Source of the DNA: a virus
Virus record (IMG/VR): IMGVR_UViG_3300042514_000542
Coordinates: 60,370 to 124,369 of that record
DNA length: 64,000 nt
Reading direction: 5' to 3' (one strand)
Part shown: positions 5,504-46,365 of the stretch, one piece after another
How positions within the stretch are numbered: the stretch's first letter is position 1
Layout: every line of letters begins with the position of its first letter
The notes under the pieces: generated by a model
The model's input: the letters and a program-made list of their open reading frames with translations, nothing else
Database searches by the model: none
Told to the model about the DNA's origin: nothing
Made by a program: the position numbers and the translations under genes

Positions 5504-5525
5504 ATTATATTCCGGTTTTAATTAT
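5504..5525 (-). promoter_or_regulatory. cassette motif copy
   Basis: +strand ATTATATTCCGGTTTTAATTAT. Confidence 0.55.
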
Positions 5526-5572
5526 TGTAAATTAGGTTTAATATGTTTATTAGATTAAAAAGTTTATTAGAA

Positions 5573-5818: not shown

Positions 5819-5823
5819 ATCTA

Positions 5824-5845
5824 ATTATACTTCGGTTTTAATTAA
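5824..5845 (-). promoter_or_regulatory. cassette motif copy
   Basis: +strand ATTATACTTCGGTTTTAATTAA; followed by ~200 nt of non-coding sequence. Confidence 0.6.
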
Positions 5846-6047
5846 AGGGATTCTGGTTTCGGCAACGCCATTCCAACGATCTAAGGTTTAACTTTTAATG
5901 TTTAACAACTAAAGGAACAAGTTTTAAGTTTTGAGTTTTATCCCAATTCGAAAATTGTATCGTTGTCATTAACATTATCGGTAGTTCGATTATCCCATTA
6001 CAGGATACTGTGCTGTTGAAACATTGTCACCTACTCCCAGAAATCAT

Positions 6048-24008: not shown

Positions 24009-24030
24009 ATTATAGTTCGGTTTTAATTAG
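24009..24030 (-). promoter_or_regulatory. cassette motif copy (read through as C-terminal ..LIKTEL of the upstream gene)
   Basis: +strand ATTATAGTTCGGTTTTAATTAG. Confidence 0.6.
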
Positions 24031-25000: not shown

Positions 25001-25029
25001 ATTGTTATTTCGGTTCCGATCCTATTAAA
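25001..25029 (-). promoter_or_regulatory. degenerate cassette motif copy
   Basis: +strand ATTGTTATTTCGGTTCCGATCCTATTAAA; an insertion disrupts the TTAATTAA box. Confidence 0.4.
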
Positions 25030-25834
25030 TTTTACACCATTTCCTGTCCATTTTAGGAACATCAATAGACAACAGTTTATTTCTCAAATAGATATACTTT
25101 CCAGTCTTTAAATTACCACCAAAAGATAGCTTATATACCATATTTGTATTTTTGATTTTTTTAATCGTGGTATCTATATTACAATAACTAGAAAACACGT
25201 TCTTTATAAATTGTAAAATATCACATGTCCCAATAATGGTAATAATTTGATTTCCATGGCTAGAAGCGATACAACCATCTCCATCTATATACCCTATTAT
25301 ATAGGCCAAAGCATGATTAACTGTTGGTATGTTTTCTGGCGGTTTAATCGTCGCCGTCTTATTCTGAGTAATGTTAAATCTATTAACTAATGTATTAACA
25401 ATATCTGGAACCCCGGTGAATTCACATCCGACATATTTTCCACCACCTCTAAAATAAAGTGGGCCATCATATTTAAAGTGTTCTTTTAACAGATTAACTG
25501 TCTTTAAATCTCTAGAGTGTAGCGTTAAACGAACCCTATTATTGGCTTCATCAATACATCCATCTGCTGCTAACAACCCAACCAAATACCAAGTCGTCAG
25601 ATCATCATTATCGAAAGCCTTCTGATCTATATTATATCTTGAGCCTTTACGTTTACCATTTCTTTTACTTTTACGCACACCAATATCTAAAATAGATCTA
25701 CAAGATTTACATTGGGAAGTGTAAAGGTTTTTACTTTTTGATCTTTTATAAAAAGATTCTAATGGTTTAGTTTCTTTACAGGTTGTGCAGGTTTTGTTGT
25801 TAGTCATACTATTATTTAGTGTGATCAACAACAA
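25025..25834 (-). CDS. LAGLIDADG homing endonuclease with N-terminal zinc finger
   Basis: LVGLLAADGCI and IIGYIDGDGCI motifs; N-terminal CTTCK...CKSC. Confidence 0.6.
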   Translation of the reverse strand: MLLITLNNSMTNNKTCTTCKETKPLESFYKRSKSKNLYTSQCKSCRSILDIGVRKSKRNGKRKGSRYNIDQKAFDNDDLTTWYLVGLLAADGCIDEANNRVRLTLHSRDLKTVNLLKEHFKYDGPLYFRGGGKYVGCEFTGVPDIVNTLVNRFNITQNKTATIKPPENIPTVNHALAYIIGYIDGDGCIASSHGNQIITIIGTCDILQFIKNVFSSYCNIDTTIKKIKNTNMVYKLSFGGNLKTGKYIYLRNKLLSIDVPKMDRKWCKI

Positions 25835-26346: not shown

Positions 26347-27009
26347 TCAAGACGTTCTTTGATGGTCTAAAATTTGTATGGATTTTGTTGACATCACATC
26401 TTCAATTTCGGAAAAACTCCAGACACTATTCTTATAGTCCCAACCAACATCCAATCCTTTTTGATATTGTGCATCTGGTTTACGACCTTTATCTTGTAGG
26501 TGGGAATGTCCAGATAATTGCCAAGCCCCACGATTATCCTTGTGCCAAATCCTTAGAGGAAAGTGGTTCATAACAATAATCTGCGTTCCTATCATAATCT
26601 CTTGATGATTTCCTATGAAGGTAAGATTCTTATACTTCAATGGGTAAATCTCCACATCGACAATACCGTATTGTTCTACTATCTGTTCCTTATAAATCCT
26701 ATACATGTTGGATTCATGATTCCCCCACATGACATAAATATTCTTACAATTAAGTCTATCGATCCAACCATTACATTGACCATCGGTAGCATTTAGGAAA
26801 AAATCTCCAAGGAACCACAATGTATCATCCTCACCAACAGTATCATTAATCTCCCTAAGAGTTTGTTCTGCTGCTTCCTCTGCATTATTATATCCACGCA
26901 TTTCCCAAATAGGGGAAGTCCAAGTTTTTGGATCGTGGAAAACATGCCAATCACTACTCCAATAGTGTTTGTTCCTCTGGTCGTATGGGAATTTCAGTAT
27001 TTTGTGCAT
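26347..27009 (-). CDS. metallophosphoesterase (calcineurin-like)
   Basis: 220 aa with GDFF, GNHE and GHSH motifs. Confidence 0.6.
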   Translation of the reverse strand: MHKILKFPYDQRNKHYWSSDWHVFHDPKTWTSPIWEMRGYNNAEEAAEQTLREINDTVGEDDTLWFLGDFFLNATDGQCNGWIDRLNCKNIYVMWGNHESNMYRIYKEQIVEQYGIVDVEIYPLKYKNLTFIGNHQEIMIGTQIIVMNHFPLRIWHKDNRGAWQLSGHSHLQDKGRKPDAQYQKGLDVGWDYKNSVWSFSEIEDVMSTKSIQILDHQRTS

Positions 27010-27253: not shown

Positions 27254-27425
27254 CCTGATCTTCTAATTCCTCTTCTGTTATATCAGATAAATCAATACAT
27301 TTTCTATACATATCTATCAACCTTTGTGTTACCTCAAAGTATTCTTCAAAATATTTATTGTTAATATATAGAGACTTCATTTTAGTAAGCTCTCCAAATC
27401 TAGGTATAAGTTCATCCTTTTTCAT
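27240..27425 (-). CDS. hypothetical protein
   Basis: 61-aa ORF. Confidence 0.4.
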   Translation of the reverse strand: MKKDELIPRFGELTKMKSLYINNKYFEEYFEVTQRLIDMYRKCIDLSDITEEELEDQDGYQ

Positions 27426-27871
27426 AGCAGTTGTCCAATACGTTGTGAAATGATCTTGTTATCAATACTACCATTAGATAGCTCCAATGCCCTCTTAATG
27501 GCTTTACCCATGTCTTTCTTAGATGTAGCACCAACATCAGCGATAGCTGTTACAATGATATTCTCAACCTCTGCTTCGGTCAATGGTGCTGGTAGGTATT
27601 CATTAAGAATCTCAATCTCATCTTTTTCAATTTTGATAAGATCATCTCTCATAGAGCTTACATAAAGCTTCATTGCATCTTCTCTTGTAGAGACAGCTTT
27701 ACGAACAATACCAAGAATCTCCAATTCACTAACTGGTTCATCAATATTACCCTTAGCCAACGAAGCATTGGTTATAGAATTTTTCAATGCACGAAGAACA
27801 TTCAACCTAGTTGTGTCCTTATCACGCATTGCCTGTTTTAGATCTGTATTTATTTTATCAATCATACTCAA
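27422..27871 (-). CDS. GatB/YqeY-domain protein
   Basis: 149 aa matching the YqeY-like family. Confidence 0.55.
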   Translation of the reverse strand: MSMIDKINTDLKQAMRDKDTTRLNVLRALKNSITNASLAKGNIDEPVSELEILGIVRKAVSTREDAMKLYVSSMRDDLIKIEKDEIEILNEYLPAPLTEAEVENIIVTAIADVGATSKKDMGKAIKRALELSNGSIDNKIISQRIGQLL

Positions 27872-27893: not shown

Positions 27894-28114
27894 CGCTTTG
27901 GTGTGTATTGTTTTACACACTTATCACAAAGTTCTTCTTCCACTAGGGATACGAACAATGACGTATCATATCCCCTTGAATACATAAGATTAAATGCTGC
28001 CTGAATCCATTGTTGACGACTCTTAGCAAAGTCATTACGTTCTTGTTTAAGAACTCTGATGATTTCCGTCTTACTTAAGTCGGAAAGATCAGTCGGATGT
28101 TGTTCACATTTCAT
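27890..28114 (-). CDS. hypothetical protein
   Basis: 74-aa ORF. Confidence 0.45.
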   Translation of the reverse strand: MKCEQHPTDLSDLSKTEIIRVLKQERNDFAKSRQQWIQAAFNLMYSRGYDTSLFVSLVEEELCDKCVKQYTPKR

Positions 28115-28650
28115 TAGATCGCTACAGTGAACTTCTGACTATCAGAATAATTCTTTGAGTTAGGATCAATAAGATTAATCTTATCAAGAAACTCATAGAT
28201 ATCCTTACATGTATAAGGATATCCCTTAAGTCTCGATTGAATCATCTTAGTGGTCACAGCACCATTATTCTTAAGGTAAGAATAGATTTTCTTTTGAACA
28301 TCGACAGGAATGTTAGTAGACGCCATAGCGGTTTGAACCACAGCAGTAGGTGTAGATTGCGCTGGTGTAATTGTAGTAGGTGATGCTACACCAAATTGAT
28401 ATTCACGATACCCATTAGGATTGTGGGTTTCATTAACACCCTCTAAAATACCATTTTCTAGAAGTTCGAGGAATAGTTCCTTCACATCATCGTGATATAC
28501 ATAATTTTCCTGATATGATGTATCGAGTAAATATACAATATCATTAAGATTTTTTCTAATCACCTTAGTAATATCCCAGATCGAAAACTTAGTAGTTCCG
28601 AATGATTTGATTGCTATAAGGATGGCCGTTGTTGTTTGTATTGTCTTCAT
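28114..28650 (-). CDS. hypothetical protein
   Basis: 178-aa ORF. Confidence 0.5.
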   Translation of the reverse strand: MKTIQTTTAILIAIKSFGTTKFSIWDITKVIRKNLNDIVYLLDTSYQENYVYHDDVKELFLELLENGILEGVNETHNPNGYREYQFGVASPTTITPAQSTPTAVVQTAMASTNIPVDVQKKIYSYLKNNGAVTTKMIQSRLKGYPYTCKDIYEFLDKINLIDPNSKNYSDSQKFTVAI

Positions 28651-28654
28651 AATT

Positions 28655-29890
28655 TTATTTTACTTCTAATAGATATTTGATTCTGATTTGATTTCCATTA
28701 TAGACAATCAATTCGTCATTTAGGAAAGATGTGTTTTGTGGCAATGCCCAGCAGGAATCATATCCAGATGGTAATTGACTGAAAGTATGTTTTGTATAGT
28801 AAGGATTACCCATCACGAAGTCACAGATAAATAACCACCCACTATCACCCTTACCTTGACCCCATCTACCTAGAGTATACCCTAAACTTTTTGATGCTGT
28901 TTCAGATCCGTAAGTCCCGTTTCCAAAGGCTTTTCCGGCTATAGCGACAGTAGATGGTGGACTAGGTTGTAGACCACTTTTTAAAATACTGAGAATATTT
29001 GCGGAAGAACTTCCATGCCACACTTCCTTAACATTCACCGGATTCTTCACAAAGTTAGCATTGTAATCCACAATGTCAACCTCATAAATGTTGATAATTT
29101 TAACATGTTGATAATGATGCATTGGTTTATTCGTGCTATTATACCAATCTTGAATTTTCTTAATAACCTTGGGATCAGTCACCAGAGACATATTGAGATT
29201 GAATACCTTTTCAGTAGAAGGTTTAGTGGCATCAACAGGTGCTTTAAGTGCCATTTCAACACTGTTATCAAGAGCGTCCAATACATCAGATTCCTTCTTA
29301 ACTACATCAACATTTGGAAAGATATTCTCATATAATAATCCACCACCCTTTGGTCTTGGGATGATCTTAAGATAATCATCAATTTTTTGATTGAAATCAT
29401 CCTGACCATTCTTCTTAATGTTTTTGAAGAAGTAATCGAGTAGAATACGTGCCTCTGAGATACCCTCTTTGGTTACGATACCCAAGGGGGTTTGGAATAC
29501 ACCGTTATTGAAACTAATACTAGTTGAGTTGGTGATCTTATGGACATTGCTATCTGCAAGTCTCTTAACAAGAGTCTTAAGACTACTATCCGATAACTTA
29601 ATTTGTGATAAGGCGATATCCGCCAATGACGTATTAGCAATAACCTTATTGGTTACAGCACCTTCCATTAGGACTTTAGCATGAGTATAACCCTTACGTT
29701 CCTTCTCACGGATTTTCTTATCAAAAAATGACTTACCAACACATCCGAAATCCTTTGATTGTGGGTTCTTTGCCCCAACTACACCAAATTCCGCCATAAC
29801 TCTTCCGTCGTCATGTAATTCGGCTTGCCAAAACTTATATGAGTTAGCTTTTAAGTCTGAGAAAACGAGCTTTACTTTTTCTTTTATCAT
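28655..29890 (-). CDS. poly(ADP-ribose) polymerase-like protein (WGR domain + PARP catalytic domain)
   Basis: N-terminal WGR-like YKFWQAEL...FGVVG. C-terminal VWHGSSSANILSILKSGL...TYGSE...IVYNGNQIRIKYLLEVK aligns with the eukaryotic PARP1 catalytic core (LWHGS...IVYDIAQVNLKYLLKLKF) recalled from memory. Confidence 0.65.
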   Translation of the reverse strand: MIKEKVKLVFSDLKANSYKFWQAELHDDGRVMAEFGVVGAKNPQSKDFGCVGKSFFDKKIREKERKGYTHAKVLMEGAVTNKVIANTSLADIALSQIKLSDSSLKTLVKRLADSNVHKITNSTSISFNNGVFQTPLGIVTKEGISEARILLDYFFKNIKKNGQDDFNQKIDDYLKIIPRPKGGGLLYENIFPNVDVVKKESDVLDALDNSVEMALKAPVDATKPSTEKVFNLNMSLVTDPKVIKKIQDWYNSTNKPMHHYQHVKIINIYEVDIVDYNANFVKNPVNVKEVWHGSSSANILSILKSGLQPSPPSTVAIAGKAFGNGTYGSETASKSLGYTLGRWGQGKGDSGWLFICDFVMGNPYYTKHTFSQLPSGYDSCWALPQNTSFLNDELIVYNGNQIRIKYLLEVK

Positions 29891-30171
29891 TAGTATGATT
29901 GTATTTCGGTTTTAATTATTCTTTCTATAACCCACTGTTGATATTGATATCCATCTTTTTGCGGATCATACAAATCATCATTATCAATACAATTCCATGT
30001 GTCTCCGACACGAATAGGAGTAAAACTTAAAAGATCGTTATATGTGTAAGTTAGACCATCACATAAGTTATTTGCGCATGAATACCTATCGGAAGATTCA
30101 TATATACGAATATTCTTTGGAATGTCCGATAACACTATACCGTATACCTTTTCGTGTTCATCCCATGTCAT
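29890..30171 (-). CDS. hypothetical protein
   Basis: 93-aa ORF. Confidence 0.45.
   Translation of the reverse strand: MTWDEHEKVYGIVLSDIPKNIRIYESSDRYSCANNLCDGLTYTYNDLLSFTPIRVGDTWNCIDNDDLYDPQKDGYQYQQWVIERIIKTEIQSY
29898..29919 (-). promoter_or_regulatory. cassette motif copy
   Basis: +strand ATTGTATTTCGGTTTTAATTAT. Confidence 0.6.
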
Positions 30172-31250
30172 AAGTCTAATAGTTGTTCCATTGCCACTTT
30201 CACAAGTTTATCTTCAACCACTCTATCATCAAGTAGACAGAATGCCAATGATGTTTGCCAAGCCTTGAATCTACCAGTGATATATAGTGCCTGTTCCTTA
30301 CGGGTTTCCAAAAGCTTAATATGATTCTTAAGTTCGTATTCTATAATATTGAGAGTATGAACATACTTACCATAAGATTCTGTGACCTTACCGATAAAGT
30401 CCTTACACTTCTCCGCAATTTCGAAATCAAGTGTCGTTTCGATGTAATTATAGAATTCCTTCTCTTCTACAAACTTAGGTGAAGCCAAGAACACATCAAG
30501 AACTTGCTTGATGCCTTTGATACCAGTAGCAAGCTTGTGGAGTTCACAGTATTCATCTGCCTTGATCTTCTTTAATGTTTGACCATCAGGTGAATATAAC
30601 ACTACGCCTTCTTTACCAGTCCATGCTGCAACATCAAGGATACATTCTTCGACAGAATTATATTCATACTTTTCAGGACGATTAACTCCAAACATTTTAG
30701 ATGAACCATCCAATGCGGCTTGATTTGCATATCTCATTGTGCGGTGTCCCACAATACCAACCAAAGTTAAAGTAGGTTCATCATGTTCACGAAGAACAAT
30801 AATGTTTGAAGGAGTGGTCCATTCAAATAACAATGATGATATCCCAGCATCCAACCAATTATTATCAAATGCCTTTGGATACTTCTTTATAAGAAGATCA
30901 ATCTCATGACCATTAGCCATTTGACGAGCATCAACAGTTCCACGGGTTCTTATGATAAGTTCCCCTTTATACTTTGAAACGATTAATAAACTTCCGTCTA
31001 ATTTATGTCGCGCTTCGATCTTCCATGAGTTGTCCCAAGGTTGAAAATCAGGACGCTCACCAAAGTTAGTGAACTTGGCAAAACCTTGTGATACTACAAA
31101 GTTATCAGACTTACGAACAATACAAGAACGGAATCGTGCATTGTCATCAAACCACTTCGTAGCCATATCGACAGGGTTGATCAACCAACATTCATCTCCT
31201 GCTATGGTGCAGTCTTTGAATTTGAATTGTTCTGGATCGGGTAACTTCAT
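30168..31250 (-). CDS. rnlA: RNA ligase 1 (T4 RnlA-like)
   Basis: 360 aa; motif I HKLDGSL (T4 Rnl1 KEDGSL); size matches Rnl1. Confidence 0.55.
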   Translation of the reverse strand: MKLPDPEQFKFKDCTIAGDECWLINPVDMATKWFDDNARFRSCIVRKSDNFVVSQGFAKFTNFGERPDFQPWDNSWKIEARHKLDGSLLIVSKYKGELIIRTRGTVDARQMANGHEIDLLIKKYPKAFDNNWLDAGISSLLFEWTTPSNIIVLREHDEPTLTLVGIVGHRTMRYANQAALDGSSKMFGVNRPEKYEYNSVEECILDVAAWTGKEGVVLYSPDGQTLKKIKADEYCELHKLATGIKGIKQVLDVFLASPKFVEEKEFYNYIETTLDFEIAEKCKDFIGKVTESYGKYVHTLNIIEYELKNHIKLLETRKEQALYITGRFKAWQTSLAFCLLDDRVVEDKLVKVAMEQLLDL

Positions 31251-32892: not shown

Positions 32893-33306
32893 TTATCTTA
32901 GCTTAAGAGACTGTTTAATATTATTCTCATGTCTTTCAAGAATTTCTTCTCCCACACCATGAACGTTCTTACCACCATGACGATTTTCAACCACTAGGAA
33001 TATAACATCCGCATCAAAGTTTTTAGCCTCTTTTTCATAATAGGTAAAATCATTAACTTTGGTATTAGTATTATTCACGATGATATCAGTTACAGTGGAT
33101 TCCTTAAGAGCTTCTTTGAAATTATACATACAAACACTATGGGCATGTGCAAGTTTATTAACATCCCAATTATAATTTCCATCCTTATCAGTAAAGAAAT
33201 CATCAGCACTAACAGAAACCCATCCAATATTTCGAGTAAGTTTTGTGGTTACAAAATCCTTACCAGCACCGGAACATCCTCTCAAAATCCATACAGTTTT
33301 TTTCAT
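32893..33306 (-). CDS. pnk: polynucleotide kinase-like P-loop kinase (T4 Pnk kinase-domain-like)
   Basis: MKKTVWILRGCSGAGKD resembles the T4 Pnk N-terminus MKKIILTIGCPGSGKS; 137 aa, no phosphatase domain. Confidence 0.5.
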   Translation of the reverse strand: MKKTVWILRGCSGAGKDFVTTKLTRNIGWVSVSADDFFTDKDGNYNWDVNKLAHAHSVCMYNFKEALKESTVTDIIVNNTNTKVNDFTYYEKEAKNFDADVIFLVVENRHGGKNVHGVGEEILERHENNIKQSLKLR

Positions 33307-34491: not shown

Positions 34492-34513
34492 ATTATATTT
34501 CGGTTTTAATTAA
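34492..34513 (-). promoter_or_regulatory. cassette motif copy
   Basis: +strand ATTATATTTCGGTTTTAATTAA. Confidence 0.6.
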
Positions 34514-35157
34514 TTCTTTGTTGTTAAAGGTGTCAGTCCACTCAATCCTGTTACAGTGTCTATTAAAAACACTTCACCATTTCTGGGATTTTTATATCTC
34601 TCGAAATCCTTTACAGACCATCCCAAGAGATACATTAAATAAAGCTTGTTAAACTCTCCGTGAGCTACCACAATATTGTGTTCATACTTACTAGTAGCTA
34701 GAATATGTTGATGGAACAATACTGCGCGTTGGTAACAGTCGGCAAACGACTCACCACCAGAAGGACGGTAATAGAAATTGAAATGTGATTCTGTTTTATT
34801 TCCCATTTCAACAATATCCCTAAGATTACCCCATTCTCTTTCACGTATCAGGGGCAATTCTTCAAATTTATTAATTTGATAGTTTTGATAACCCGTGATC
34901 CTACCATGTAGGATATTTGCTGTTTGGTATGCCCTCTTATAAGAACTATGATATAAATTAAAATTACATCTGGGTTCTCTAGGTGGATTGTCTGATTTAG
35001 CGTCATGTTCAACCAAACTCATAATATCATCAGCCGCATTAATAGCATCATCCTTTCCTCGTTCAGCCAATTCAATATCACAATCTAGATTTCTAAAATA
35101 TTCAGATTTATCGATATTCCCCTTCGACAATCCGTGTCTAACTAAGTAAATTTTCAT
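34510..35157 (-). CDS. histidine phosphatase superfamily protein (phosphoglycerate-mutase-like)
   Basis: N-terminal LVRHGLSKGN (RHG catalytic motif); 215 aa. Confidence 0.55.
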   Translation of the reverse strand: MKIYLVRHGLSKGNIDKSEYFRNLDCDIELAERGKDDAINAADDIMSLVEHDAKSDNPPREPRCNFNLYHSSYKRAYQTANILHGRITGYQNYQINKFEELPLIREREWGNLRDIVEMGNKTESHFNFYYRPSGGESFADCYQRAVLFHQHILATSKYEHNIVVAHGEFNKLYLMYLLGWSVKDFERYKNPRNGEVFLIDTVTGLSGLTPLTTKN

Positions 35158-35160: not shown

Positions 35161-35616
35161 CTATTCCTTAAAGTATGCATCAGTGATCACTTCATTTTTA
35201 TCATAATCAATCACTAACATAGGTGATCCATCGTATCTCACATCATCCCTCAATTGAAGACCCCACTTATAAGTCATACAAAGTGTCATGATATCTATTG
35301 CAAAGAACTTACCAATCAAATCTTTTAGATCAACTTCAGGAAGATCCCACTCGAAACTATGCATGTTGAAGAATGGTTGATCCCTACCATCGAGAGGATC
35401 GTTATCATCAAATATATTAGGATATTCCTCTAACCACACATATGTAGAGGAAGAATTTAATTCCGTTTTTCTAACAGTATATTGTTGACCCGGAACTAGT
35501 TTCTTAGCATCTTCGTTAACGTTAATAAACCAACTTCTAGTAGGCTCTATAAATGTTATCTTCTGCCCTACTTTTGGTAGACCATGTAATATTTTTCTGT
35601 CATTAAACATGCTCAT
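35161..35616 (-). CDS. hypothetical protein
   Basis: 151-aa ORF. Confidence 0.5.
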   Translation of the reverse strand: MSMFNDRKILHGLPKVGQKITFIEPTRSWFINVNEDAKKLVPGQQYTVRKTELNSSSTYVWLEEYPNIFDDNDPLDGRDQPFFNMHSFEWDLPEVDLKDLIGKFFAIDIMTLCMTYKWGLQLRDDVRYDGSPMLVIDYDKNEVITDAYFKE

Positions 35617-36029
35617 AATAGTGGTAGATGGTCTGTTAGACCATCGAATTTGCTCGATTCATGTGGCCCGATTGCAATTGCCGTCTTAGTCTTAACTCCA
35701 TTAAATTCAGTCGCACCGTTGTCGATAATCATATGGGATATTAACCCATTGTCAAGAGCCTTTTGGTGAAGTTCGTCAAGTTCTTGTTCACTGTTGACAT
35801 AGACACAGATTTTACGAAATGAGTTTTTCAACCAATGGTCTATTTCATCGACATGTTTAGATTCTAAGTCTTGATAAAAGTAGTCATCCCTATACACATG
35901 TTGATAATCGTAGTCAACCCGACCACCTTTTGTTAAGAATGACATTGATGCATGACTCGATTGGGCGCACATCTTCCCCTTCCTCATGTTGAGGTCTTTT
36001 CGGATTACTATAACCTGTTTAGTATTCAT
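35613..36029 (-). CDS. peptidyl-tRNA hydrolase PTH2-like
   Basis: RKGKMCAQSSHAS and AIAIGPHE match PTH2 motifs (GKGKIAAQCSHA, AIGPGP). Confidence 0.6.
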   Translation of the reverse strand: MNTKQVIVIRKDLNMRKGKMCAQSSHASMSFLTKGGRVDYDYQHVYRDDYFYQDLESKHVDEIDHWLKNSFRKICVYVNSEQELDELHQKALDNGLISHMIIDNGATEFNGVKTKTAIAIGPHESSKFDGLTDHLPLL

Positions 36030-37056: not shown

Positions 37057-37078
37057 ATTATACTTCGGTTTTAATTAA
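37057..37078 (-). promoter_or_regulatory. cassette motif copy
   Basis: +strand ATTATACTTCGGTTTTAATTAA. Confidence 0.6.
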
Positions 37079-38490
37079 CTCTCTTCCTCCATATCGGCTT
37101 CGTTATTATCCCTCGCAGCGGATTCCTTAATAACAAATTTAGGTGATTTGAATTTTAATGCGGTTCTCTTGGGATTGTTTTCAATTCTAAGAACAATACC
37201 CTCATTAACAACACCAGTGGTGCAAAGTTCACAATCCTTATCAAGATGAGCCTCCTTAAGTTTTGCCAAGAAATTATCATTCCAATCTTTATCCATAGGG
37301 ATATCATCAGCAAACATATCTCTAGCCAATCCAGTATAATATACTGGAACTGTTTTCAATCCAAGATCATGACAAAATTCCTCAATCTCATACCATTCCA
37401 ATTCGTAGATTTTACCTTCAGGTAGGTTACAAGTAATTCTATATACTCGGAATTCGCATTCACCTTTAGCTACACCGTAATCATAACCCTTTTGGATGGT
37501 CGCACCACCGGAGGTATATCCCACAATTTCACCATACACAGTATAACGTTCTGGAATTTCACCCTCAAGTTCTGCTGCAATAACACCCCATACATCATCA
37601 GTATAGTTCCCATCGCGTCTATTCTTAAGAACACTACGACTAGAGTATACGAACTTATATTCCGTGTCTGGAATATTAAGTCCAAGATTGGGTACATAAT
37701 ATCCGATCTTATTAAGAATAGGTCTAGTGATGCTGAATGGTTTCTTACAAAGAATGTTCGCAAAGATCGCAGACGTTCCATGCATCTTAGAAGATACCGT
37801 AATAAAATCATCAGGATTAACTAAGAAGATATTCCTACCAAGATGTTCAGTCTTATAATGAAATGCGAATTGACCATCAACAAGTTGAGATTTGATACCT
37901 TCGGCCTTTCTATTGAACCATGCATTAATAGGCTTATATAGTTTAACACGAATAGGTCTTGGCATGACACCAATGGTTTTCTCAACCCATTTTGGAACAC
38001 GGCTCTTTTTCTCATTAGCTTCACCGCTATTTCTAGCATCACCCTTAACGTATTTCTTGGCTAGAACATCTTCACCAACAGTATCAAAGATATCACCAAG
38101 TTTAAAGGTGTCTTCATCTACTTCATAATATTTTGCTAGTTCGGATACTTTGAATAGGAATCCTTGGGATGGAATGGATCTTAGGCCAATAGCCTTAACA
38201 CGACCATGCTTACCGAAAAATCCCTTGGTTTTTCCATCAGCATTAAGTTCGGCGTTATCTCTAAGATTTGCCCAAGATAGGAACTTAAGAGAAATGGCAC
38301 ATTCTACTGGAAAGTAGACCACAAGATCACCTTCGTTATAAGAACCTTTTCCAATGATAATAGTATTACCAAAGACTTCCACCAAAGAAAGTCTATCTGC
38401 GTTGGGGTGATCCTTAATAACAGGAACCTTTACGACAGTTGGTAGGTAGTTGGGATCTGCACCCTCGCTAATAGTTAATTTTGCTTTCAT
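37075..38490 (-). CDS. rnlB: RNA ligase 2-like enzyme fused to an N-terminal tRNA-binding (Myf/EMAP-II/Trbp111-type) OB domain
   Basis: N-terminus HPNADRLSLVEVFGNTIIIG resembles tRNA-binding domains; KMHGTSAIF matches T4 Rnl2 motif I KIHGTN; 471 aa. Confidence 0.55.
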   Translation of the reverse strand: MKAKLTISEGADPNYLPTVVKVPVIKDHPNADRLSLVEVFGNTIIIGKGSYNEGDLVVYFPVECAISLKFLSWANLRDNAELNADGKTKGFFGKHGRVKAIGLRSIPSQGFLFKVSELAKYYEVDEDTFKLGDIFDTVGEDVLAKKYVKGDARNSGEANEKKSRVPKWVEKTIGVMPRPIRVKLYKPINAWFNRKAEGIKSQLVDGQFAFHYKTEHLGRNIFLVNPDDFITVSSKMHGTSAIFANILCKKPFSITRPILNKIGYYVPNLGLNIPDTEYKFVYSSRSVLKNRRDGNYTDDVWGVIAAELEGEIPERYTVYGEIVGYTSGGATIQKGYDYGVAKGECEFRVYRITCNLPEGKIYELEWYEIEEFCHDLGLKTVPVYYTGLARDMFADDIPMDKDWNDNFLAKLKEAHLDKDCELCTTGVVNEGIVLRIENNPKRTALKFKSPKFVIKESAARDNNEADMEEES

Positions 38491-39045: not shown

Positions 39046-39897
39046 TTATTCAAAATCGCGGATACTATGGATAAAGGGAAATCTGGGAATTTGCTTATCA
39101 GGTGTCTTATTAAAGAAAACCACAGTAGCCAATTTACCAATGTAGTTATCCTTGTTATCTAACAGTTCTTTAAGGTATGCTCTATCACCTTTAATATTGG
39201 AATTGAAACTATGTCCAAGTTCGTTTTCAAAAACCATAGCACCTGCAAGCCCCGCACGATTTCCAACACCTTCCACAATATCAAGAATCTTATACTCTTC
39301 ATCTTGGAATTCTTTCCTCTTAAGAAGATTAGCAGAACGCTTGAATTCATACGGTGTATCGAGTCGAACCATTTGACCCTCATAACCTCTATCAAGATAT
39401 GCACCATAAACTTTATCTAAGGTTTCAAGATCATCAATTCTTTGTGTAGTTACTCTAACAATACAATCGGGAAGATTAAAATTTTCTTTGATTGTTTTGA
39501 TCCAATTTTTACGTTGTCTAAAAGTGTGTTTATCACTGGCAGTATCATACCACCAGAATTGAACCATTTCGGCACTTTCCACCAAATCATCTTTGGTCGG
39601 TTTTTGCTTCTTAATCAAAGATGACATTTTGTTGAAGTCATGCTTCAAATCGTGGTTGTATAATTCACCATCAAGGATCAAATCTGGATACTTTTCAAAT
39701 ACGGGTTCCAGTGCTTCAAGAATATGTGGAATAGTTGCCCAAGGTTTACCATTACGAGACTTTGCCCCATTACGAGTAATCACCGCTCGACAATTATGAA
39801 CTAATATATCATTAGCGTAGAAGTTATGATTATCTTCTACTTCTATATCATATCGATCATAAAAATCTTCTAATTTTTCTATCTTAACAATTTTCAT
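39046..39897 (-). CDS. ATP-dependent DNA ligase C-terminal fragment, preceded by a split-intein C-half (IntC, ~35 aa)
   Basis: Starts MKIVKIEKLEDFYDRYDIEVEDNHNFYANDILVHN|C, closely resembling Npu DnaE IntC (MIKIATRKYLGKQNVYDIGVERDHNFALKNGFIASN|C). Ligase motifs follow: ILDGELY, GYEGQMVR, LLKRK. Confidence 0.7.
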   Translation of the reverse strand: MKIVKIEKLEDFYDRYDIEVEDNHNFYANDILVHNCRAVITRNGAKSRNGKPWATIPHILEALEPVFEKYPDLILDGELYNHDLKHDFNKMSSLIKKQKPTKDDLVESAEMVQFWWYDTASDKHTFRQRKNWIKTIKENFNLPDCIVRVTTQRIDDLETLDKVYGAYLDRGYEGQMVRLDTPYEFKRSANLLKRKEFQDEEYKILDIVEGVGNRAGLAGAMVFENELGHSFNSNIKGDRAYLKELLDNKDNYIGKLATVVFFNKTPDKQIPRFPFIHSIRDFE

Positions 39898-40777
39898 ATT
39901 TATTTAAAATCTCCTCAACTCGTTCTTTATTAATCTCATCATCCCAAATAGTCTCAAAGTTATAATTTAAATTGATTATGTGGTCTTCTTTTATTTTATC
40001 TCTTTGCCATATTTGTTCCGCTGTTAACTTTCCATGGATTGTATTGAACATATCATGTGGTTTATAATATTTTGGATTTGCGTGCCAAAAGCACCCGTTA
40101 ACCTCAATCACCAATTTTTTATTAGGTATGTATATATCAACAATTGGGCAAAACCTTCTCTCCATAATTGGATTGTAAGATTTAAAGTATTCATTTGTTT
40201 CGGTTTCATATTCTACTCCCAAATCGTCTAAAATCTGCAATGTATCTCTATGCGGTTTAGATAATCTAAATGTCTTTCGAAAAAATCCCGGAATCTCCGA
40301 TGGATGCTCGACACCATGATTAGTTATCCAGTAATCTTTAATTTTTTGTTTAATTACAGGAGATTTAAAATTATTATCTACTCCATATGTGTCTAAACAT
40401 TTTAATCTCTTTTGTTCCTTTACTATATTTGACTGGGATATATTTGTTATATTCTCACCATATTTCTCTCTTATAGTTTTAATTTTACTGGCACTAACAC
40501 TTGGAAGGAAACATGTATCGGAAATGTTTCTAGTTTCAACTCCTGTTTCATTTCGTAATCTATCTATAATAACACCAGCACCACCTATAGATATTCCAAT
40601 TTCTTGGAAATACTTGACTATAGAGTTTGCACTCATATGTTCATTAAGATATAAATCAATTAATAAATCATTTGTTATTATTTCTCTAATATATTTTCTT
40701 CTATCGTGATTATTTGGGTGTTTCGACAATACATCTCTATCCAATATCAAGCTTTCAAATTTTTCCTTTTCAGTCAT
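39884..40777 (-). CDS. free-standing Vsr-like (PD-(D/E)XK) homing endonuclease between the intein halves
   Basis: 297 aa; LVIEVNGCFWHANP matches the Vsr signature FxDGCFWHxH; separated by stop codons from the IntN ORF and overlaps the IntC ORF by 14 nt. Confidence 0.6.
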   Translation of the reverse strand: MTEKEKFESLILDRDVLSKHPNNHDRRKYIREIITNDLLIDLYLNEHMSANSIVKYFQEIGISIGGAGVIIDRLRNETGVETRNISDTCFLPSVSASKIKTIREKYGENITNISQSNIVKEQKRLKCLDTYGVDNNFKSPVIKQKIKDYWITNHGVEHPSEIPGFFRKTFRLSKPHRDTLQILDDLGVEYETETNEYFKSYNPIMERRFCPIVDIYIPNKKLVIEVNGCFWHANPKYYKPHDMFNTIHGKLTAEQIWQRDKIKEDHIINLNYNFETIWDDEINKERVEEILNKYENC

Positions 40778-40816: not shown

Positions 40817-41506
40817 TTAGATGGAATTTTTTAAAGTTTCTGTTCCATCCAATTCATCGACTCTTCGCCAACATTTAAGATTATCTACCCAAACTCTATG
40901 ATTACCAGTAAGAACTAACTCTTTACCACTGTCTGTTGTAATTTTATACCAATTAGATGTTTTCTCTTTTATGTCTACTCCGTTCAACATAACACATTTT
41001 ATAGACTTGTATTCATTCTCCCCTGTAGTCTCGTTATAAGTTTTAATTTTTGGTAAATCTGTTGTCATAGAATCTAGAAATAATTCATACAACTCATGTA
41101 TCTTCATATCTTCATTTTCTAATGATATCATACTATATCCATGCAAACATCCATCAAGCTTGGGTTGACTATATACAGGAAATTTTACCTTATCTTTACG
41201 GTCTTCCCATTTCTTAGCAAGCATGGGTTCTACGTATTCAGAGGTGTCGATCTTTGAGATATCAACATGATATCCAGTGTCCTTCTTCTTAGTCCAAGAT
41301 GCTTGTGCTTCGAATAACGCCTGTTCTTCTGGTGTTCTTTGATTTGCACGATTTTCGTTTGTAACTAAACAGACAGTCCATTCCGTAGTCTGTAACTTGC
41401 CATTAAGTTGTCCATGAATAGTTCTATACGAATCTTTTTCGATTTCTACAGTCCATGTTTGAATCGCTCCCGTATTTGTTCGGGAATATAATGTGGGTAG
41501 TTGCAT
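40817..41506 (-). CDS. ATP-dependent DNA ligase N-terminal fragment (through motif I KLDG) fused to a split-intein N-half (IntN, ~120 aa)
   Basis: KVKFPVYSQPKLDG|CLHGYSM... cf. T4 gp30 KFPAFAQLKADGARC. Intein block B ELVLTGNHRVWVDN; ends ...LKNSI then stop. Confidence 0.7.
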   Translation of the reverse strand: MQLPTLYSRTNTGAIQTWTVEIEKDSYRTIHGQLNGKLQTTEWTVCLVTNENRANQRTPEEQALFEAQASWTKKKDTGYHVDISKIDTSEYVEPMLAKKWEDRKDKVKFPVYSQPKLDGCLHGYSMISLENEDMKIHELYELFLDSMTTDLPKIKTYNETTGENEYKSIKCVMLNGVDIKEKTSNWYKITTDSGKELVLTGNHRVWVDNLKCWRRVDELDGTETLKNSI

Positions 41507-41535: not shown

Positions 41536-41957
41536 TCGGGATTTTCGTAGATATTTCCAATAATTTCATATTTTTTAAAATCCTTGGATGTGTGGTTAAA
41601 GGCTCTACCGACTACTTCTGACTTAGATTCTCCGATCCTTCTATATATGTAAGGTGAATTAAAACTACCATCATAAAAGTCCACAACCATAAGAAATCTC
41701 AAATCTATTCCTTGCATCTGATGAAAGTTTTTAGATATAGTTTCTAAGATATCTCCCTCATAAATCTCTTTACCGTTTTTATCTTTAAATCCAGTGAATT
41801 GCATAACCTTAGAATACTTCAACCAATCATTGAAATCCCACACATCACCACCCCGACCACTCATTGAGTTATGTTCTACATGATGTTTTTCAATACCATG
41901 ATGCATTTTATCATTATACCACGCTCTAAATTTAATTTCTCTATTCATATCATTCAA
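41514..41957 (-). CDS. YopX-family protein
   Basis: 147 aa; EIKFRAWYNDKM... and C-terminal EIIGNIYENPEL match the YopX domain. Confidence 0.55.
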   Translation of the reverse strand: MNDMNREIKFRAWYNDKMHHGIEKHHVEHNSMSGRGGDVWDFNDWLKYSKVMQFTGFKDKNGKEIYEGDILETISKNFHQMQGIDLRFLMVVDFYDGSFNSPYIYRRIGESKSEVVGRAFNHTSKDFKKYEIIGNIYENPELIKTEL

Positions 41958-42175
41958 CCATCATAAACTCCAAGCTGTCTCCAACCTCTTCTTCCCCAAA
42001 CAAAATCACAACCATCCTTGTGTCCACTCTCGTCTGTAATATCAACTAACCCTTTACAATTTTCACAACATTTAAAATTGTCCAAATCAGAATTTTTTAA
42101 CTTAGTCCCATCAAACGGACAATACCAATATCCATCTTGATCATAATTGGCTAGACATTTGGGACATCTTATCAT
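41954..42175 (-). CDS. zinc-ribbon protein
   Basis: 73 aa with CPKC...CP and CCENCK Cys pairs. Confidence 0.45.
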   Translation of the reverse strand: MIRCPKCLANYDQDGYWYCPFDGTKLKNSDLDNFKCCENCKGLVDITDESGHKDGCDFVWGRRGWRQLGVYDG

Positions 42176-42717
42176 AATGGAATGTATACTGAACTTTTTG
42201 GCTTCTCTGTAGGCTTCATTTCCCCATTATCTATATCATAGATGATAAATTCAACAGGGAATTTTGATTCAATATCCTTAAGGATAGCTTCTACAATGAT
42301 CCACGAACCACCAGCACGAACAGATGCCATACCGTATGGAATACCAATAGTGAATGGAGATTCTAGTTTACATAGTCGATCACATGCTCTATAGATAGCA
42401 TCATATAGATAGTCATACCTACAGTTCCTATTTAAAGGATGACCATCATTACCGATACCAACTTGGCCATATAGATTAATGACCAACCTATTATCAGGTA
42501 GAATTGCGACTGAACTTCTACCGAGTTTATCGCTCTTTTGAGCTATCATACTACTACCCATGAGATTATCATGATAATCTAAGTCTGCTTGATAAACCTC
42601 TGGCCATTTTTCCTTAAGGTAGTATGCAATACCACTACCCATAACACATTCGATATTGGCACAATGCATTGCAACATCCCAATCCCCGTCAAGCAAATTT
42701 CCTTTTTTATATTTCAT
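42172..42717 (-). CDS. macro-domain protein (ADP-ribose binding/hydrolase)
   Basis: KKGNLLDGDWDVAMHCANIECVMGSGIAYYL fits the macro-domain N-terminal signature. Confidence 0.55.
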   Translation of the reverse strand: MKYKKGNLLDGDWDVAMHCANIECVMGSGIAYYLKEKWPEVYQADLDYHDNLMGSSMIAQKSDKLGRSSVAILPDNRLVINLYGQVGIGNDGHPLNRNCRYDYLYDAIYRACDRLCKLESPFTIGIPYGMASVRAGGSWIIVEAILKDIESKFPVEFIIYDIDNGEMKPTEKPKSSVYIPL

Positions 42718-43109
42718 ATATATTTTTCTGTTTTAATAAATGACTCTGTATGAGTTTCGTTCAAGATTTTATACTTCATATCTGGATAATGTAGTTCCAT
42801 ATATAAGTCTAACTCATCTTCATTTAAAGCGCATACAAAAAACTTCTTTTCATCAATACCAACCTCATACATATTATGTAGAATGGTATCGTAATAGATG
42901 ACTTTGTAAACTCTACCATAACCGACACGAATAGCGTATTCAGCAAATAAGAAAAACACACAGATGACCATCCACCAATTAGTATCAGTTCCGAATATCC
43001 AACCAACACCACCAAACTTACACATTAAGAGCAATCCGATAATTGACATGATCCAGCCCCACCAATCAAATGGTTTAAATAATCTACCTACTTCTTTTGG
43101 TGTGTTCAT
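42714..43109 (-). CDS. membrane protein
   Basis: 131 aa with two or three TM helices. Confidence 0.5.
   Translation of the reverse strand: MNTPKEVGRLFKPFDWWGWIMSIIGLLLMCKFGGVGWIFGTDTNWWMVICVFFLFAEYAIRVGYGRVYKVIYYDTILHNMYEVGIDEKKFFVCALNEDELDLYMELHYPDMKYKILNETHTESFIKTEKYI
42718..42745 (-). promoter_or_regulatory. degenerate cassette motif copy
   Basis: +strand ATATATTTTTCTGTTTTAATAAATGA upstream of the macro-domain gene start. Confidence 0.35.
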
Positions 43110-44086: not shown

Positions 44087-45100
44087 ATGGTGTGTGATAG
44101 GTTAAATATATTTATGCGAAAGTCAAAAATTAGTTTAGCAGATGAAGAAGCGATTGTCAATCAGTATTTAAAGGAAAAAAATGTAGAAAAATTAAGATCT
44201 AAATATAAAACATCATTTAAAGATATTAAAAATATTCTAATTAAAAATAATATATATTCAGGTAGAAGATCAACTTCATTGAATTTAAAATATTTTGAAA
44301 ATATAGATAGTAATGAAAAAGCTTATTGGTTAGGATTTATTTCGGCTGATGGATCTTTGTCTAAAAATGGGTATAAATTATCCTTTGGTGTTAAGGATTC
44401 TGATATATTAGAAAAATTTAAAAGAGCCATATCATCTGGAAGCCCTGTATCAGATTTCAACGTATATGATGAGAGGACAGATAAAACTTACAATAGATAT
44501 AGTCTTCAGATATGTTCTAAAGAATTTTGCCAATATATAAGAAATCATGGAGTTGATGAAAACAAGTCAAAAGTATTCAAATTCCCAAAGATTGATGAGA
44601 AATATTACTCCCATTTTATTAGAGGGTTATATGACGGTGATGGTAGTATATGTATAGTCAAATCCAAGGTTATAGAGAATATCAACTTTAGGGCAAATAT
44701 TATAAGTTCTTTGGAGTGTGTTAACTACATTAAAGTTTATTTAGAAAGCATCAATATCTCATCTAATAAAATATTTTCCAAACACGACCAAAATATTCAC
44801 TATATTACATTTGGAAAGGACGTTATTAAATTTTTAAATTGGATTTATAAAGACTCATCCGAAGAAACTAGGTTGGATAGAAAATACAATAAATTTATCG
44901 ATAATCTACATGATTATAATACCCAACATAAGATTTTTCAAATTAAAAATCATCAAACCGGAGTTACACATAAAGTTAAGAATTTGATTAAATTCTGTAA
45001 AGATAATAATTTAAACGATAATTACTTGAGGTATAATATGACTAATGGAAAAATTCCAACAAAAGGTAAGCACTTAGGATGGGAATTATTACCCAATTAA
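44087..45100 (+). CDS. LAGLIDADG homing endonuclease
   Basis: LGFISADGS and GLYDGDGS motifs; + strand; no cassette motif upstream. Confidence 0.6.
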   Translation: MVCDRLNIFMRKSKISLADEEAIVNQYLKEKNVEKLRSKYKTSFKDIKNILIKNNIYSGRRSTSLNLKYFENIDSNEKAYWLGFISADGSLSKNGYKLSFGVKDSDILEKFKRAISSGSPVSDFNVYDERTDKTYNRYSLQICSKEFCQYIRNHGVDENKSKVFKFPKIDEKYYSHFIRGLYDGDGSICIVKSKVIENINFRANIISSLECVNYIKVYLESINISSNKIFSKHDQNIHYITFGKDVIKFLNWIYKDSSEETRLDRKYNKFIDNLHDYNTQHKIFQIKNHQTGVTHKVKNLIKFCKDNNLNDNYLRYNMTNGKIPTKGKHLGWELLPN

Positions 45101-45104: not shown

Positions 45105-45839
45105 TCATACTTTATATTCTTTCTCAGAGTCAAAGAAAAATAACTCATTTATATCTACACAGCGACAATATACACCATCAACAGTTTGTCTCATATTGTT
45201 GTGCATATGTCCGTGGAATATTGTTTTACATTCGACCACCTTTACTATTTCACTTACCAATTCTCTCTGGGCGAGACAGTCATGATAAAGTGTTGGGTCT
45301 ACGTCATGAAATCTTTTCCAGTGTGTTGGTATGGTATGTGATGAGTGATTAAACTGTTCGGGACAATCATGTGAAAACATGATATCACATTTCTCTATAA
45401 CTTTATAGTCTATTGGTATTGTTCCTTCGGCAGTCCAATAATCATAATCTTGTCTTCTACTATATCTATCAATGCTTATACCACCAGCAAGTAATAATGC
45501 CTTCTTCCCATTAGGGAATACTGCATATGCATGATCTTTAATTAGGAAAACATTTGAAAATTTCTGATCCCATATTTCATCATATGTTGCATCATGATTA
45601 CCACGGATGATGTAAAAATTAATACCTAAATTATGACATAGTTTATTAGTATTATACAACCACATAGTTGTATTCTTAATGGCATATTCTTTTTTGGCAA
45701 ATCCCAAGCCAACATCACCCAGATGGATAAGATCAACCCCGCCATCAACCCTACTTCCTATGATATCTTTGGTAATTTGTTGTGAATGTGTATCACCTAA
45801 AAGGATCACTTTATCATTTTTGAATTTATAATTTTCCAT
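45105..45839 (-). CDS. metallophosphoesterase
   Basis: GDTH, GDVG and GNHD motifs; 244 aa. Confidence 0.55.
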   Translation of the reverse strand: MENYKFKNDKVILLGDTHSQQITKDIIGSRVDGGVDLIHLGDVGLGFAKKEYAIKNTTMWLYNTNKLCHNLGINFYIIRGNHDATYDEIWDQKFSNVFLIKDHAYAVFPNGKKALLLAGGISIDRYSRRQDYDYWTAEGTIPIDYKVIEKCDIMFSHDCPEQFNHSSHTIPTHWKRFHDVDPTLYHDCLAQRELVSEIVKVVECKTIFHGHMHNNMRQTVDGVYCRCVDINELFFFDSEKEYKV

Positions 45840-46365
45840 TTTCTAATATTTCTCGAATAATTGGCCTTGCGGCACTGTTTGCTGTATGTATATAATACTT
45901 TGGAATACTTACATTACGGGCTTTACAAGCCTTTACCAGATATTCGGCGCAATGCGCCCCTGTTTTGATTTTAAAGTCTTGCCATCCTATCATCTGAAAC
46001 TGTTTTGTCAACTCTTCACTAGTTGGATTTGTGGCTAACTCTCTAGAAACATCCCAAAGATCATTATCAAAACTGACAACATCAGGAATACCTACATCAT
46101 CGATGTATTTAACAAATTCATCATAAGATCTAACGATATCCCAACTACCCTCTGGTATTCCACTCACATCCAATAGATGTTGTTTAATATCCCAAATAAC
46201 CGCTCTTTTCGGCATTCTCACATCATCCAAGAACAGACATCTTTCATGATTGTAATTTACATTACTCTCCTTCTTCTTCCATAATGGACTATCCCAATAT
46301 GCCTTAATATTTGTTACACGGGATCTATCTCCCTTTCCTCCATGCCATGCTTCACTCATAACCAA
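45826..46365 (-). CDS. hypothetical protein
   Basis: 179-aa ORF. Confidence 0.5.
   Translation of the reverse strand: MVMSEAWHGGKGDRSRVTNIKAYWDSPLWKKKESNVNYNHERCLFLDDVRMPKRAVIWDIKQHLLDVSGIPEGSWDIVRSYDEFVKYIDDVGIPDVVSFDNDLWDVSRELATNPTSEELTKQFQMIGWQDFKIKTGAHCAEYLVKACKARNVSIPKYYIHTANSAARPIIREILENGKL

Follow-up and report, generated by a model that had tools for sequence, protein, structure and literature searches.

The stretch of DNA analysed here, hereafter the window, covers 64,000 nucleotides (positions 60,370 to 124,369) of the IMG/VR virus record IMGVR_UViG_3300042514_000542 and comes from a large myovirus, with a tail sheath gene (60382-62691) and rIIA, rIIB and ThyX genes. An open reading frame (ORF) at 42172-42717, on the minus strand, encodes a 181-aa macro-domain protein. 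At roughly even odds (probability about 0.5), we read this protein as an Adpp-type ADP-ribose-1''-phosphate (ADPR-1''-P) phosphatase, which would act as an unlinked accessory of the phage NARP1 enzymes against RES-type NAD+ phosphorylases. This reading builds on the fold of the protein, its family placement, its conserved residues, the NARP1 pair encoded by the same genome and the co-occurrence of the macro family with the NARP1 enzyme Namat. The enzymatic activity and the phenotype against RES-domain defence (aRES) are known from the work of others on a homologue of ~26% identity, and by analogy we infer that the window protein may share the Adpp substrate and serve NARP1 from ~23 kb away.

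Identification of a phage macro-domain protein

The ORF starts with ATG and spans exactly 42172-42717, as reported in an earlier note on this DNA, and the N-terminal signature quoted there lies within the start of the protein, MKYKKGNLLDGDWDVAMHCANIECVMGSGIAYY. The gene belongs to a dense array of minus-strand genes: its ATG shares bases with the TGA of the preceding ORF 42714-43109 (ATGA), and the ATG of the next ORF, 41954-42175, overlaps its stop codon. A protein database yielded 111 homologues with 99% to about 30% identity, the distant ones carrying PF01661, and the gene order around the macro gene is kept in related viral contigs. The homologues, the overlapping start and stop and the conserved gene order confirm that this ORF is a real, conserved gene. 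A megablast search of a 6-kb region around it against cultured phages returned no match, and a scan for promoters and terminators gave background level only.

As a single sequence, the protein had no match in a Pfam scan even at E ≤ 10, and its PDB matches were weak (5e3b at 0.0026; DarG and TARG1 within the N-terminal ~45 residues). A family profile of 66 sequences matched the solved macro domains BT1257 (2.4e-24), SCO6735 (1.1e-21), TARG1 (3.7e-17), Mycobacterium tuberculosis DarG (4.3e-17) and yeast Poa1p (5e-16). The AlphaFold2 (AF2) model built on the 66-sequence alignment reached a pLDDT of 91.1 and a pTM of 0.86, with poor prediction only at the C-terminal tail (about residues 162-181). 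When this model was searched with Foldseek, DarG in complex with ADP-ribose (ADPr), BT1257, TARG1, Poa1p and SCO6735 came out on top, all with probability 1.0 and with target TM-scores of 0.76-0.82, which corresponds to the three-layer alpha/beta/alpha macro fold. The earlier note had named structure prediction beforehand as a point at which its macro-domain assignment could fail; the prediction placed the protein inside the fold. Profile matches and model thus confirm the predicted product as a macro domain, of the ALC1-like/TARG1/DarG/Poa1p class, a membership that rests on profile and fold and not on the curated Pfam Macro model. It is the sole macro-like ORF of the window (E = 5.8e-68 vs 0.36 for the runner-up) and falls in the broad phage family phrog_335.

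Predicted active site

Residue correspondences were taken from HMM alignments and from a MAFFT alignment with reference proteins. Across the 66 homologues, N21, G29, G66, N81 and G136 are invariant, and G6, H18, G27, A31, P39, Q85, Y101, P127, G137 and W139 are at least 90% conserved. Loop 1 reads M26-G27-S28-G29-I30-A31, a further segment reads N81-L-Y-G-Q85, and loop 2 reads P127-Y-G-M-A-S-V-R134-A-G136-G137-S-W139, such that both Gly-rich ADP-ribose-binding loops can be recognized, loop 1 after beta2 (M26-A31) and the diphosphate-binding loop 2 (A135-G136-G137-S-W139). H18 and N21 form an H-x-x-N pair matching H23 of Poa1p, N27 of SCO6735 and H24/N27 of Adpp from Vibrio phage Gary. The catalytic Lys of TARG1 (K84) and DarG (K80) is replaced by Q85, which hardly varies within the family and is matched by Gln85 in SCO6735, and A135 stands where TARG1 has Asp125. 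By sequence, the protein is thus a Gln-type ALC1-like macro domain with all the residues expected of an active enzyme.

Relationship to Adpp and NARP1

In some phages, the genes for Adps and Namat flank one for a macro protein, Adpp (Osterman et al., bioRxiv 10.64898/2026.01.28.702374). The Adpp of Vibrio phage Gary (KNV71_gp137) converts ADPR-1''-P into ADP-ribose (ADPR) in vitro; ADPR-1''-P is the product of RES-type NAD+ phosphorolysis (aRES), and ADPR is what NARP1 needs (bioRxiv 10.64898/2026.01.28.702374). A three-gene operon with Gary Adpp overcomes aRES, and the substitutions H24A and N27A abolish this counter-defence (bioRxiv 10.64898/2026.01.28.702374). According to the preprint, 15% of NARP1 operons have a macro gene no more than two genes away (bioRxiv 10.64898/2026.01.28.702374).

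Vibrio phage Thalassa, congeneric with Gary, has the same operon in the order Adps, macro gene, Namat. The family profile of the window protein aligned by hhalign with the Thalassa operon macro protein over its full length (probability 99.9, E = 1.3e-35), and with AdfM of phage PhiKZ at a probability of 97.7 (E = 1.7e-12). Using NARP1-embedded sequences from Table S1 of the preprint (bioRxiv 10.64898/2026.01.28.702374), BLASTP gave 33.5% identity to the macro protein of phage 1.063.O (E = 1e-17), 32% to that of phage RYC (E = 4e-15) and 26.5% to Gary Adpp (E = 2e-8); identity to SCO6735 was 24.7% (E = 1e-8). Loop 2 of the window clade (P-Y-G-M-A-S-V-R-A-G-G-S-W) is unusual in its one-residue insertion and Arg, and the same variant is carried by the NARP1-embedded proteins of RYC and 1.063.O (P-[HF]-x-M-G-C-D-R-A-G-G-x-W), giving the common motif P-x-x-M-x-x-[DV]-R-A-G-G-x-W. 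We also built a neighbour-joining (NJ) tree, used for topology only, with weak deep support and some bootstrap values that looked unreliable after rerooting. In this tree, the window clade sits among phage macro proteins that include all the NARP1-embedded ones, SCO6735, BT1257 and the macro proteins adjacent to PARP in megaphages form a separate cluster, and AdfM, Poa1p and TARG1 also stand apart. The hhalign, BLASTP and NJ results, the last with weak deep support, all point to homology with Adpp and the other NARP1-embedded macro proteins, and the two residues essential in Gary Adpp (H24 and N27) are present as H18 and N21.

The NARP1-like pair that the earlier note had announced is indeed encoded in the window. 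The Adps-like ORF (18253-19173, minus strand) is a homologue of phosphoribosyl pyrophosphate (PRPP) synthetases and corresponds to the first NARP1 enzyme (ADPR + ATP -> ADPR-PP); it matches Pfam Pribosyltran_N and Pribosyltran as well as NCBIfam ribose-phosphate diphosphokinase models, the latter all below cutoff, and is 30% identical to the Adps of the Thalassa NARP1-AP operon. The Namat-like ORF (15425-16924, minus strand), a NAMPT homologue, corresponds to the second enzyme (ADPR-PP + nicotinamide -> NAD+); it matches Pfam NAPRTase (2.3e-35) and NCBIfam NF006629 (491 bits) and shares 45-49% identity with Thalassa Namat.

The mechanism that we consider would start with a host RES-domain defence (aRES) that splits NAD+ by phosphorolysis into nicotinamide and ADPR-1''-P, which Adps cannot use. 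The cleft of the macro protein would hold the ADP-ribose moiety through loop 1 (MGSGIA) and loop 2 (RAGGSW), with H18, N21 and Q85 around the distal ribose, and the protein would hydrolyse the 1''-phosphate of ADPR-1''-P to give ADPR. Adps (18253-19173) would then pyrophosphorylate ADPR to ADPR-PP, and Namat (15425-16924) would couple ADPR-PP with nicotinamide, restoring NAD+.

Two ORFs lie between Adps and Namat in the window. The 146-aa ORF 17763-18203 (minus strand) occupies the slot held by Adpp in NARP1-AP operons and was considered as a macro or NARP1 accessory; this candidate was set aside, as it had no Pfam, PHROG, macro-HMM or cultured-phage match. A LAGLIDADG homing endonuclease (16978-17766) is also inserted there, on the opposite, plus strand.

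Co-occurrence of the macro family with Namat

We counted both genes in 50,697 phage records, using tblastn with the window protein for the macro family and a concatenated query for the union. The macro family was found in 816 records and a Namat homologue in 2046, with a union of 2258. Both were present in about 604 records, that is in 74% of the macro-bearing ones vs 4% for Namat among all records, with 33 expected by chance, in counts that ignore shared ancestry. The association goes beyond 'large myovirus', Namat being found in 30% of the 2908 records with rIIB, which served as a control. By genus, the overlap is near 100% in Klebsiella, Pseudomonas, Vibrio, Salmonella and Aeromonas phages and about half in those of Escherichia. 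Macro and Namat genes are adjacent and colinear in 154 records and stand apart in about 413 of the about 604, for instance by 85 kb in ESCO8 and 69 kb in Snake_ER16. NARP1-associated macro genes are thus usually unlinked from the NARP1 operon, and the arrangement in the window, with macro gene and NARP1 in one genome and unlinked, is the majority pattern.

Several observations weigh against the Adpp assignment. The macro gene lies outside the NARP1 operon, ~23 kb from Adps and in a different gene cluster, and not within two genes of Adps and Namat as in the definition of the preprint; likewise, in 37 IMG/VR loci of the macro family, neither Adps nor Namat was found less than 10 kb away from the macro gene. 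The co-occurrence may owe something to the shared ancestry that the counts leave in. About 26% of the macro-bearing records are without Namat, including about 115 records of Rheinheimera phages, so the family has, or can keep, a NARP1-independent role. The sole characterised Adpp is 26.5% identical to the window protein, and the deep nodes of the NJ tree are weak. H18, N21 and Q85 are shared with SCO6735 and BT1257 and are not Adpp-specific, hence these residues do not discriminate between substrates. Finally, phrog_335, annotated as 'phosphatase', takes in both Gary Adpp (1.3e-49) and the anti-DarT2 enzyme AdfM (8.2e-43), so membership in this PHROG alone assigns no function.

The Rheinheimera phages (vB_RspM_Barba*) stand out in the counts. 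Of their ~115 macro-bearing records, almost none overlaps with Namat, the few exceptions (Barba19A, Barba31A) having the complete operon, with Namat and Adps beside the macro gene. It looks as though NARP1 was recently gained or lost while the macro gene stayed in place, and these phages would lend themselves to testing whether the macro gene has a role apart from NARP1. A different arrangement was seen in phAPEC8-like phages, where the macro gene directly follows the gene of a 275-aa protein (locus L047, 4157-5471; gp049-gp050 of Escherichia phage phAPEC8; see also record OM362897 of SKA64). Some records annotate this protein as phosphoribosyltransferase-family or as a ComF-like phosphoribosyltransferase (PRTase), and it was not among the Adps homologues that tblastn detected. 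This protein could be another kind of partner that handles ADPR or PRPP.

Alternative roles of the macro protein

The earlier note had proposed, as an alternative, an anti-defence de-ADP-ribosylase, for example against DarT-like DNA ADP-ribosylation. Such an enzyme would remove the thymidine ADPr made by DarT2 in single-stranded DNA (ssDNA), or other DNA or RNA ADPr, in the manner of DarG2, SCO6735 and AdfM. SCO6735 of Streptomyces coelicolor is a Gln-type macro protein that hydrolyses both thymidine-linked ADPr-DNA and protein ADPr; its Q85A mutant is inactive, and the loop after this Gln is thought to clamp DNA (PMC9411070). AdfM (gp104 of phage PhiKZ) is a DarG2-like macro protein with N23 and K78 that counters DarTG2 (PMC13309987), and it offers a precedent for a phage anti-DarT2 macro protein in the same PHROG as the window protein. 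The best Foldseek match of the latter is the DarG macro domain with ADPr (5m3e), its best profile matches among solved structures are SCO6735 and BT1257, its Q85 and N21 correspond to SCO6735 Gln85, needed for DNA-ADPr hydrolysis, and Asn27, and it has a similarly long loop after Q85.

This likeness to DarG and AdfM, however, does not extend to the whole protein. The PADLOC DarG model matches residues 2-44 only (30.5 bits), as does the NCBIfam DarG model NF048014 (27.2 bits vs a cutoff of 250), whereas AdfM matches the PADLOC model over its full length (132.9 bits). The catalytic Lys of Taq DarG (K80), TARG1 and AdfM (K78) is replaced by Q85. Compared with SCO6735 and BT1257, the window protein shares a Gln at the catalytic-Lys position, held by the loop-1 Asn (Q85 and N21), but lacks the motifs V/I-C-N-D-x-G-G-W-G-K-G-F (with Val25 and Lys34) and A-N-M-I-G-Q, with C19 in place of Val25, S28 in place of Lys34, VMGSGIA as loop 1 and INLYGQ as the counterpart of the last motif; it scores 44 bits with an HMM of their subclass vs 222.6 bits with that of its own family. 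Nor does it have the basic surface of SCO6735 (isoelectric point, pI, of 5.4 vs 9.75), a weak argument given that AdfM is acidic too, and the tree groups it with NARP1-embedded macro proteins rather than with SCO6735, BT1257 or AdfM. The de-ADP-ribosylase proposal is thus plausible by analogy with SCO6735 and AdfM while the protein itself is not DarG- or AdfM-like. We keep this role as a tentative possibility, one that we would put clearly below the Adpp-type phosphatase, because the Gln-type SCO6735 removes DNA ADPr and about a quarter of the genomes with the macro family are without Namat. ICP1 AdfB, considered as a further phage macro domain for comparison, was rejected, being a 77-aa DarT binder.

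Another alternative, which we find improbable, is that the macro protein erases the marks of the phage's own PARP by removing protein-proximal ADP-ribose from the targets of the WGR-bearing PARP, with the ADPR then fed to NARP1. The PARP-like gene reported in the earlier note is present at 28655-29890 (minus strand) and encodes WGR, regulatory and catalytic domains with an intact H292/Y327/E393 triad, and no PARG, ARH or second macro protein was found in the window. SCO6735-class macro proteins can reverse PARP1 automodification (PMC9411070). A member of the macro superfamily was detected in the PARP-bearing Klebsiella, Stenotrophomonas and Cellulophaga phage groups and in one of two Xanthomonas phages (Xoo-sp13), and thus in most PARP-bearing cultured groups; none was detected in PARP-bearing XacN1 or in two uncultured megaphages. 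Klebsiella phage FBKp34 has an Adpp-like macro gene 2.4 kb upstream of PARP, and in three megaphage contigs of 298-548 kb a macro gene lies 4-7 kb from PARP (PARP and macro at 2603-3880 and 9884-10405 in L038, 5256-6539 and 9902-10426 in L041, and 4840-6138 and 9899-10687 in L042).

These three megaphage macro proteins, however, carry SCO6735/BT1257 motifs (NMIGQ, FGSDLAGG), cluster with SCO6735 and BT1257 and possibly represent a single lineage. They were therefore dropped as support for an eraser role of the window protein and speak instead for another macro subfamily as the partner of PARP. In the window, macro gene and PARP are 12 kb apart in different clusters, and no link between them was seen. 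The locus L010, from a 196.7-kb contig of the same lineage, retains the macro gene together with its upstream neighbour and is without PARP at the syntenic position, between an Rnl1-type ligase and a metallophosphatase. PARP homologues, moreover, occur in 16 of the 50,697 records vs 816 for the macro family, and PARP therefore cannot explain the existence of the family. The idea in the earlier note that the macro protein erases PARP marks hence has no specific support.

In the megaphages themselves, PARP and the SCO6735/BT1257-type macro protein form a candidate writer/eraser pair, from a macro subfamily other than that of the window. The window PARP is a full PARP1-3-like enzyme. The ORF next to it (28114-28650) was examined as a hidden PARG or macro protein and rejected, being tandem winged-helix-like with weak fold matches only; a YqeY-like ORF (27422-27871) comes next. 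In FBKp34, PARP, a 155-aa ORF and YqeY follow in the same order, with no detectable similarity between the middle genes.

The writer/eraser/recycler set proposed in the earlier note survives in part. A functional link between macro protein and NARP1 is backed by published experiments and by co-occurrence, but what is documented is an ADPR-1''-P phosphatase that restores the NARP1 substrate after RES-type NAD+ phosphorolysis, not an eraser that supplies a recycler. A combined version, in which the PARP, of the DNA-break-sensing type (WGR, H-Y-E), would write ADP-ribose at the expense of NAD+ and a dual-purpose macro protein would both strip ADPr from macromolecules and dephosphorylate ADPR-1''-P, with NARP1 rebuilding NAD+ from the freed ADPR and nicotinamide in a closed virus-encoded ADP-ribose cycle, appears doubtful to us; if true, a bacteriophage would possess, in PARP, macro protein and NARP1, a complete circuit of writer, eraser and recycler. 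Promiscuity is common among macro domains, and more than one of these roles could be true at once in vivo.

A Poa1p-type RNA-repair phosphatase, which would act on the Appr-1''-P left by Tpt1-type removal of the 2'-phosphate from ligated RNA, has in its favour the resemblance to yeast Poa1p in profile and fold, the wealth of RNA-repair genes in the window (three RNA ligases, a Thg1-like protein, a kinase, phosphoesterases, a cREC_REC protein and PTH2) and the RNA ligase and phosphoesterase just upstream of the NARP1-AP operon in Thalassa. Yet no Tpt1/KptA or 2H cyclic phosphodiesterase was found by Pfam in about 60 ORFs of the window, where PARG, ARH and DarT were also sought by Pfam and not found. 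T4-type healing and sealing (Pnk and Rnl1) leaves no 2'-phosphate, and the macro family tracks Namat and not RNA ligases, all of which makes this role very unlikely. Equally remote is a non-catalytic reader or sponge that would bind poly(ADP-ribose) (PAR) or ADPR-derived immune signals without hydrolysis: the Gln at the catalytic-Lys position is common to ALC1, a binder (PMC9411070), and loop 2 of the window clade has its first glycines replaced (MASVRAGG vs IGCGLAGG), but the catalytic-type H18 (at least 90%) and N21 (invariant) are conserved across the family, and the macro proteins of RYC and 1.063.O, the nearest relatives of known gene context to have this loop-2 variant, are encoded where NARP1-AP operons carry the enzyme.

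Neighbouring genes and genome context

The upstream ORF 42714-43109 (minus strand), whose stop overlaps the macro start, encodes a 131-aa protein with no Pfam or PHROG match and an N-terminal half that, by eye, seems rich in transmembrane segments. It is a conserved neighbour of the macro gene, with 42-70% identity in five related loci (L006, L007, L008, L010 and L011), and appears as a translationally coupled, putative membrane protein travelling with the macro gene. The downstream ORF 41954-42175 (minus strand), whose start overlaps the macro stop, encodes a 73-aa Cys-rich, zinc-ribbon-like protein and is not conserved beside the macro gene in relatives.

Further along the minus strand, the gene for an ATP-dependent DNA ligase is 'fractured' over three ORFs. 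An N-terminal part ending in an intein N-half (40817-41506) is followed by a free-standing endonuclease with DUF7487 and a Vsr-like motif (39884-40777) and by an intein C-half fused to the remainder of the ligase (39046-39897). The ligase is uninterrupted in the relatives L006-L009, and the arrangement resembles the split inteins with homing endonucleases of 'fractured genes'. Homing endonucleases of the LAGLIDADG type account for at least four ORFs within 32 kb, and a Vsr-like endonuclease for one more (13022-13972, minus; 16978-17766, plus; 25025-25834, minus; 44087-45100, plus; 39884-40777, minus), two of these ORFs being opposite to the surrounding genes.

The window also holds an unusually dense set of RNA-repair and tRNA-maintenance genes (12262-13032, 24010-24666, 26347-27009, 30168-31250, 32893-33306, 34510-35157, 35613-36029, 37075-38490, 45105-45839 and 45826-46365). 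Their predicted products are a Thg1-like guanylyltransferase, three RNA ligases of different types, a Pnk-like kinase, a histidine phosphatase, two metallophosphoesterases, PTH2 and a protein with a cREC_REC cyclic-phosphate-processing domain.

Implications for phage macro-domain annotation

The macro gene adds a divergent member to a phage family that is already known and common, which will not surprise a specialist, and the mechanism by which it probably works was published in January 2026 (bioRxiv 10.64898/2026.01.28.702374). If the Adpp assignment is right, NARP1-AP counter-defence against RES phosphorolysis would be much commoner than operon-based counting suggests, since most of the genomes with macro and Namat genes, about 413 of about 604, keep the two apart. 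Annotations such as 'phosphatase', 'O-acetyl-ADP-ribose deacetylase' and 'hypothetical' could then be sharpened. As phrog_335 mixes at least two experimentally distinct activities, those of Adpp and of the anti-DarT2 AdfM, function calls in this family need subfamily checks on the Lys or Gln at the catalytic position and on the loop motifs.

Comparison with known macro-domain systems

Among the known systems, Adpp shares with the window protein the family phrog_335 and the motifs H-x-x-N, MGxGIA, N-[LV]-Y-G-Q and AGGxW, and the source phage of the window also encodes Adps and Namat. Unlike Adpp, however, the window protein is encoded ~23 kb from NARP1 and not between Adps and Namat. Where loop 2 of Gary Adpp reads PL-IGCGLAGGDW, the window protein has PYGMASVRAGGSW, with a one-residue insertion and an Arg. 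Its C-terminus is also extended by a tail of about 20 aa (window 42172-42234, residues ~162-181), which is clade-specific, ends in a conserved [QK]-S-S-V-x-I-P, includes S175 (at least 90% conserved in the close clade) and is missing from Gary Adpp and other family members. This tail could be a short docking motif.

SCO6735 and BT1257 (Bacteroides thetaiotaomicron) are the best solved-structure matches by profile and resemble the window protein in the Gln at the TARG1-K84/DarG-K80 position, the Asn of H-x-x-N, the AGGxW of loop 2 and the long loop after the Gln. They differ from it in overall sequence (~25% identity), in loop 1 (GGWGKGF vs VMGSGIA, with no equivalent of Lys34 in the window protein), in being strongly basic where the window protein is acidic and in their tree cluster. 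AdfM is, like the window protein, a stand-alone phage macro protein of similar size in phrog_335 with the same conserved Asn, but it keeps the DarG catalytic Lys (K78) where the window protein has Gln, and their BLASTP alignment spans only 53 residues. With TARG1/OARD1 and the DarG macro domains, the window protein shares the ALC1-like class and a beta1-loop1 sequence that is nearly superimposable (GDLL...MGxGIA), whereas it lacks their catalytic Lys, TARG1 Asp125 and the DarT-binding C-terminal domain. Yeast Poa1p (PDB 6LFQ-6LFU) has the same fold (Foldseek E = 1.6e-9), an H-x-x-N motif with the catalytic His (H23) and the ADP-ribose 1''-phosphate phosphatase reaction proposed for the window protein. 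Poa1p is ~19-20% identical to it, has Thr/Ser at the Q85 position and INSGIFGVPW as loop 2, and acts in the pathway of a tRNA-splicing by-product, unlike the role in NARP1 that we propose for the window protein.

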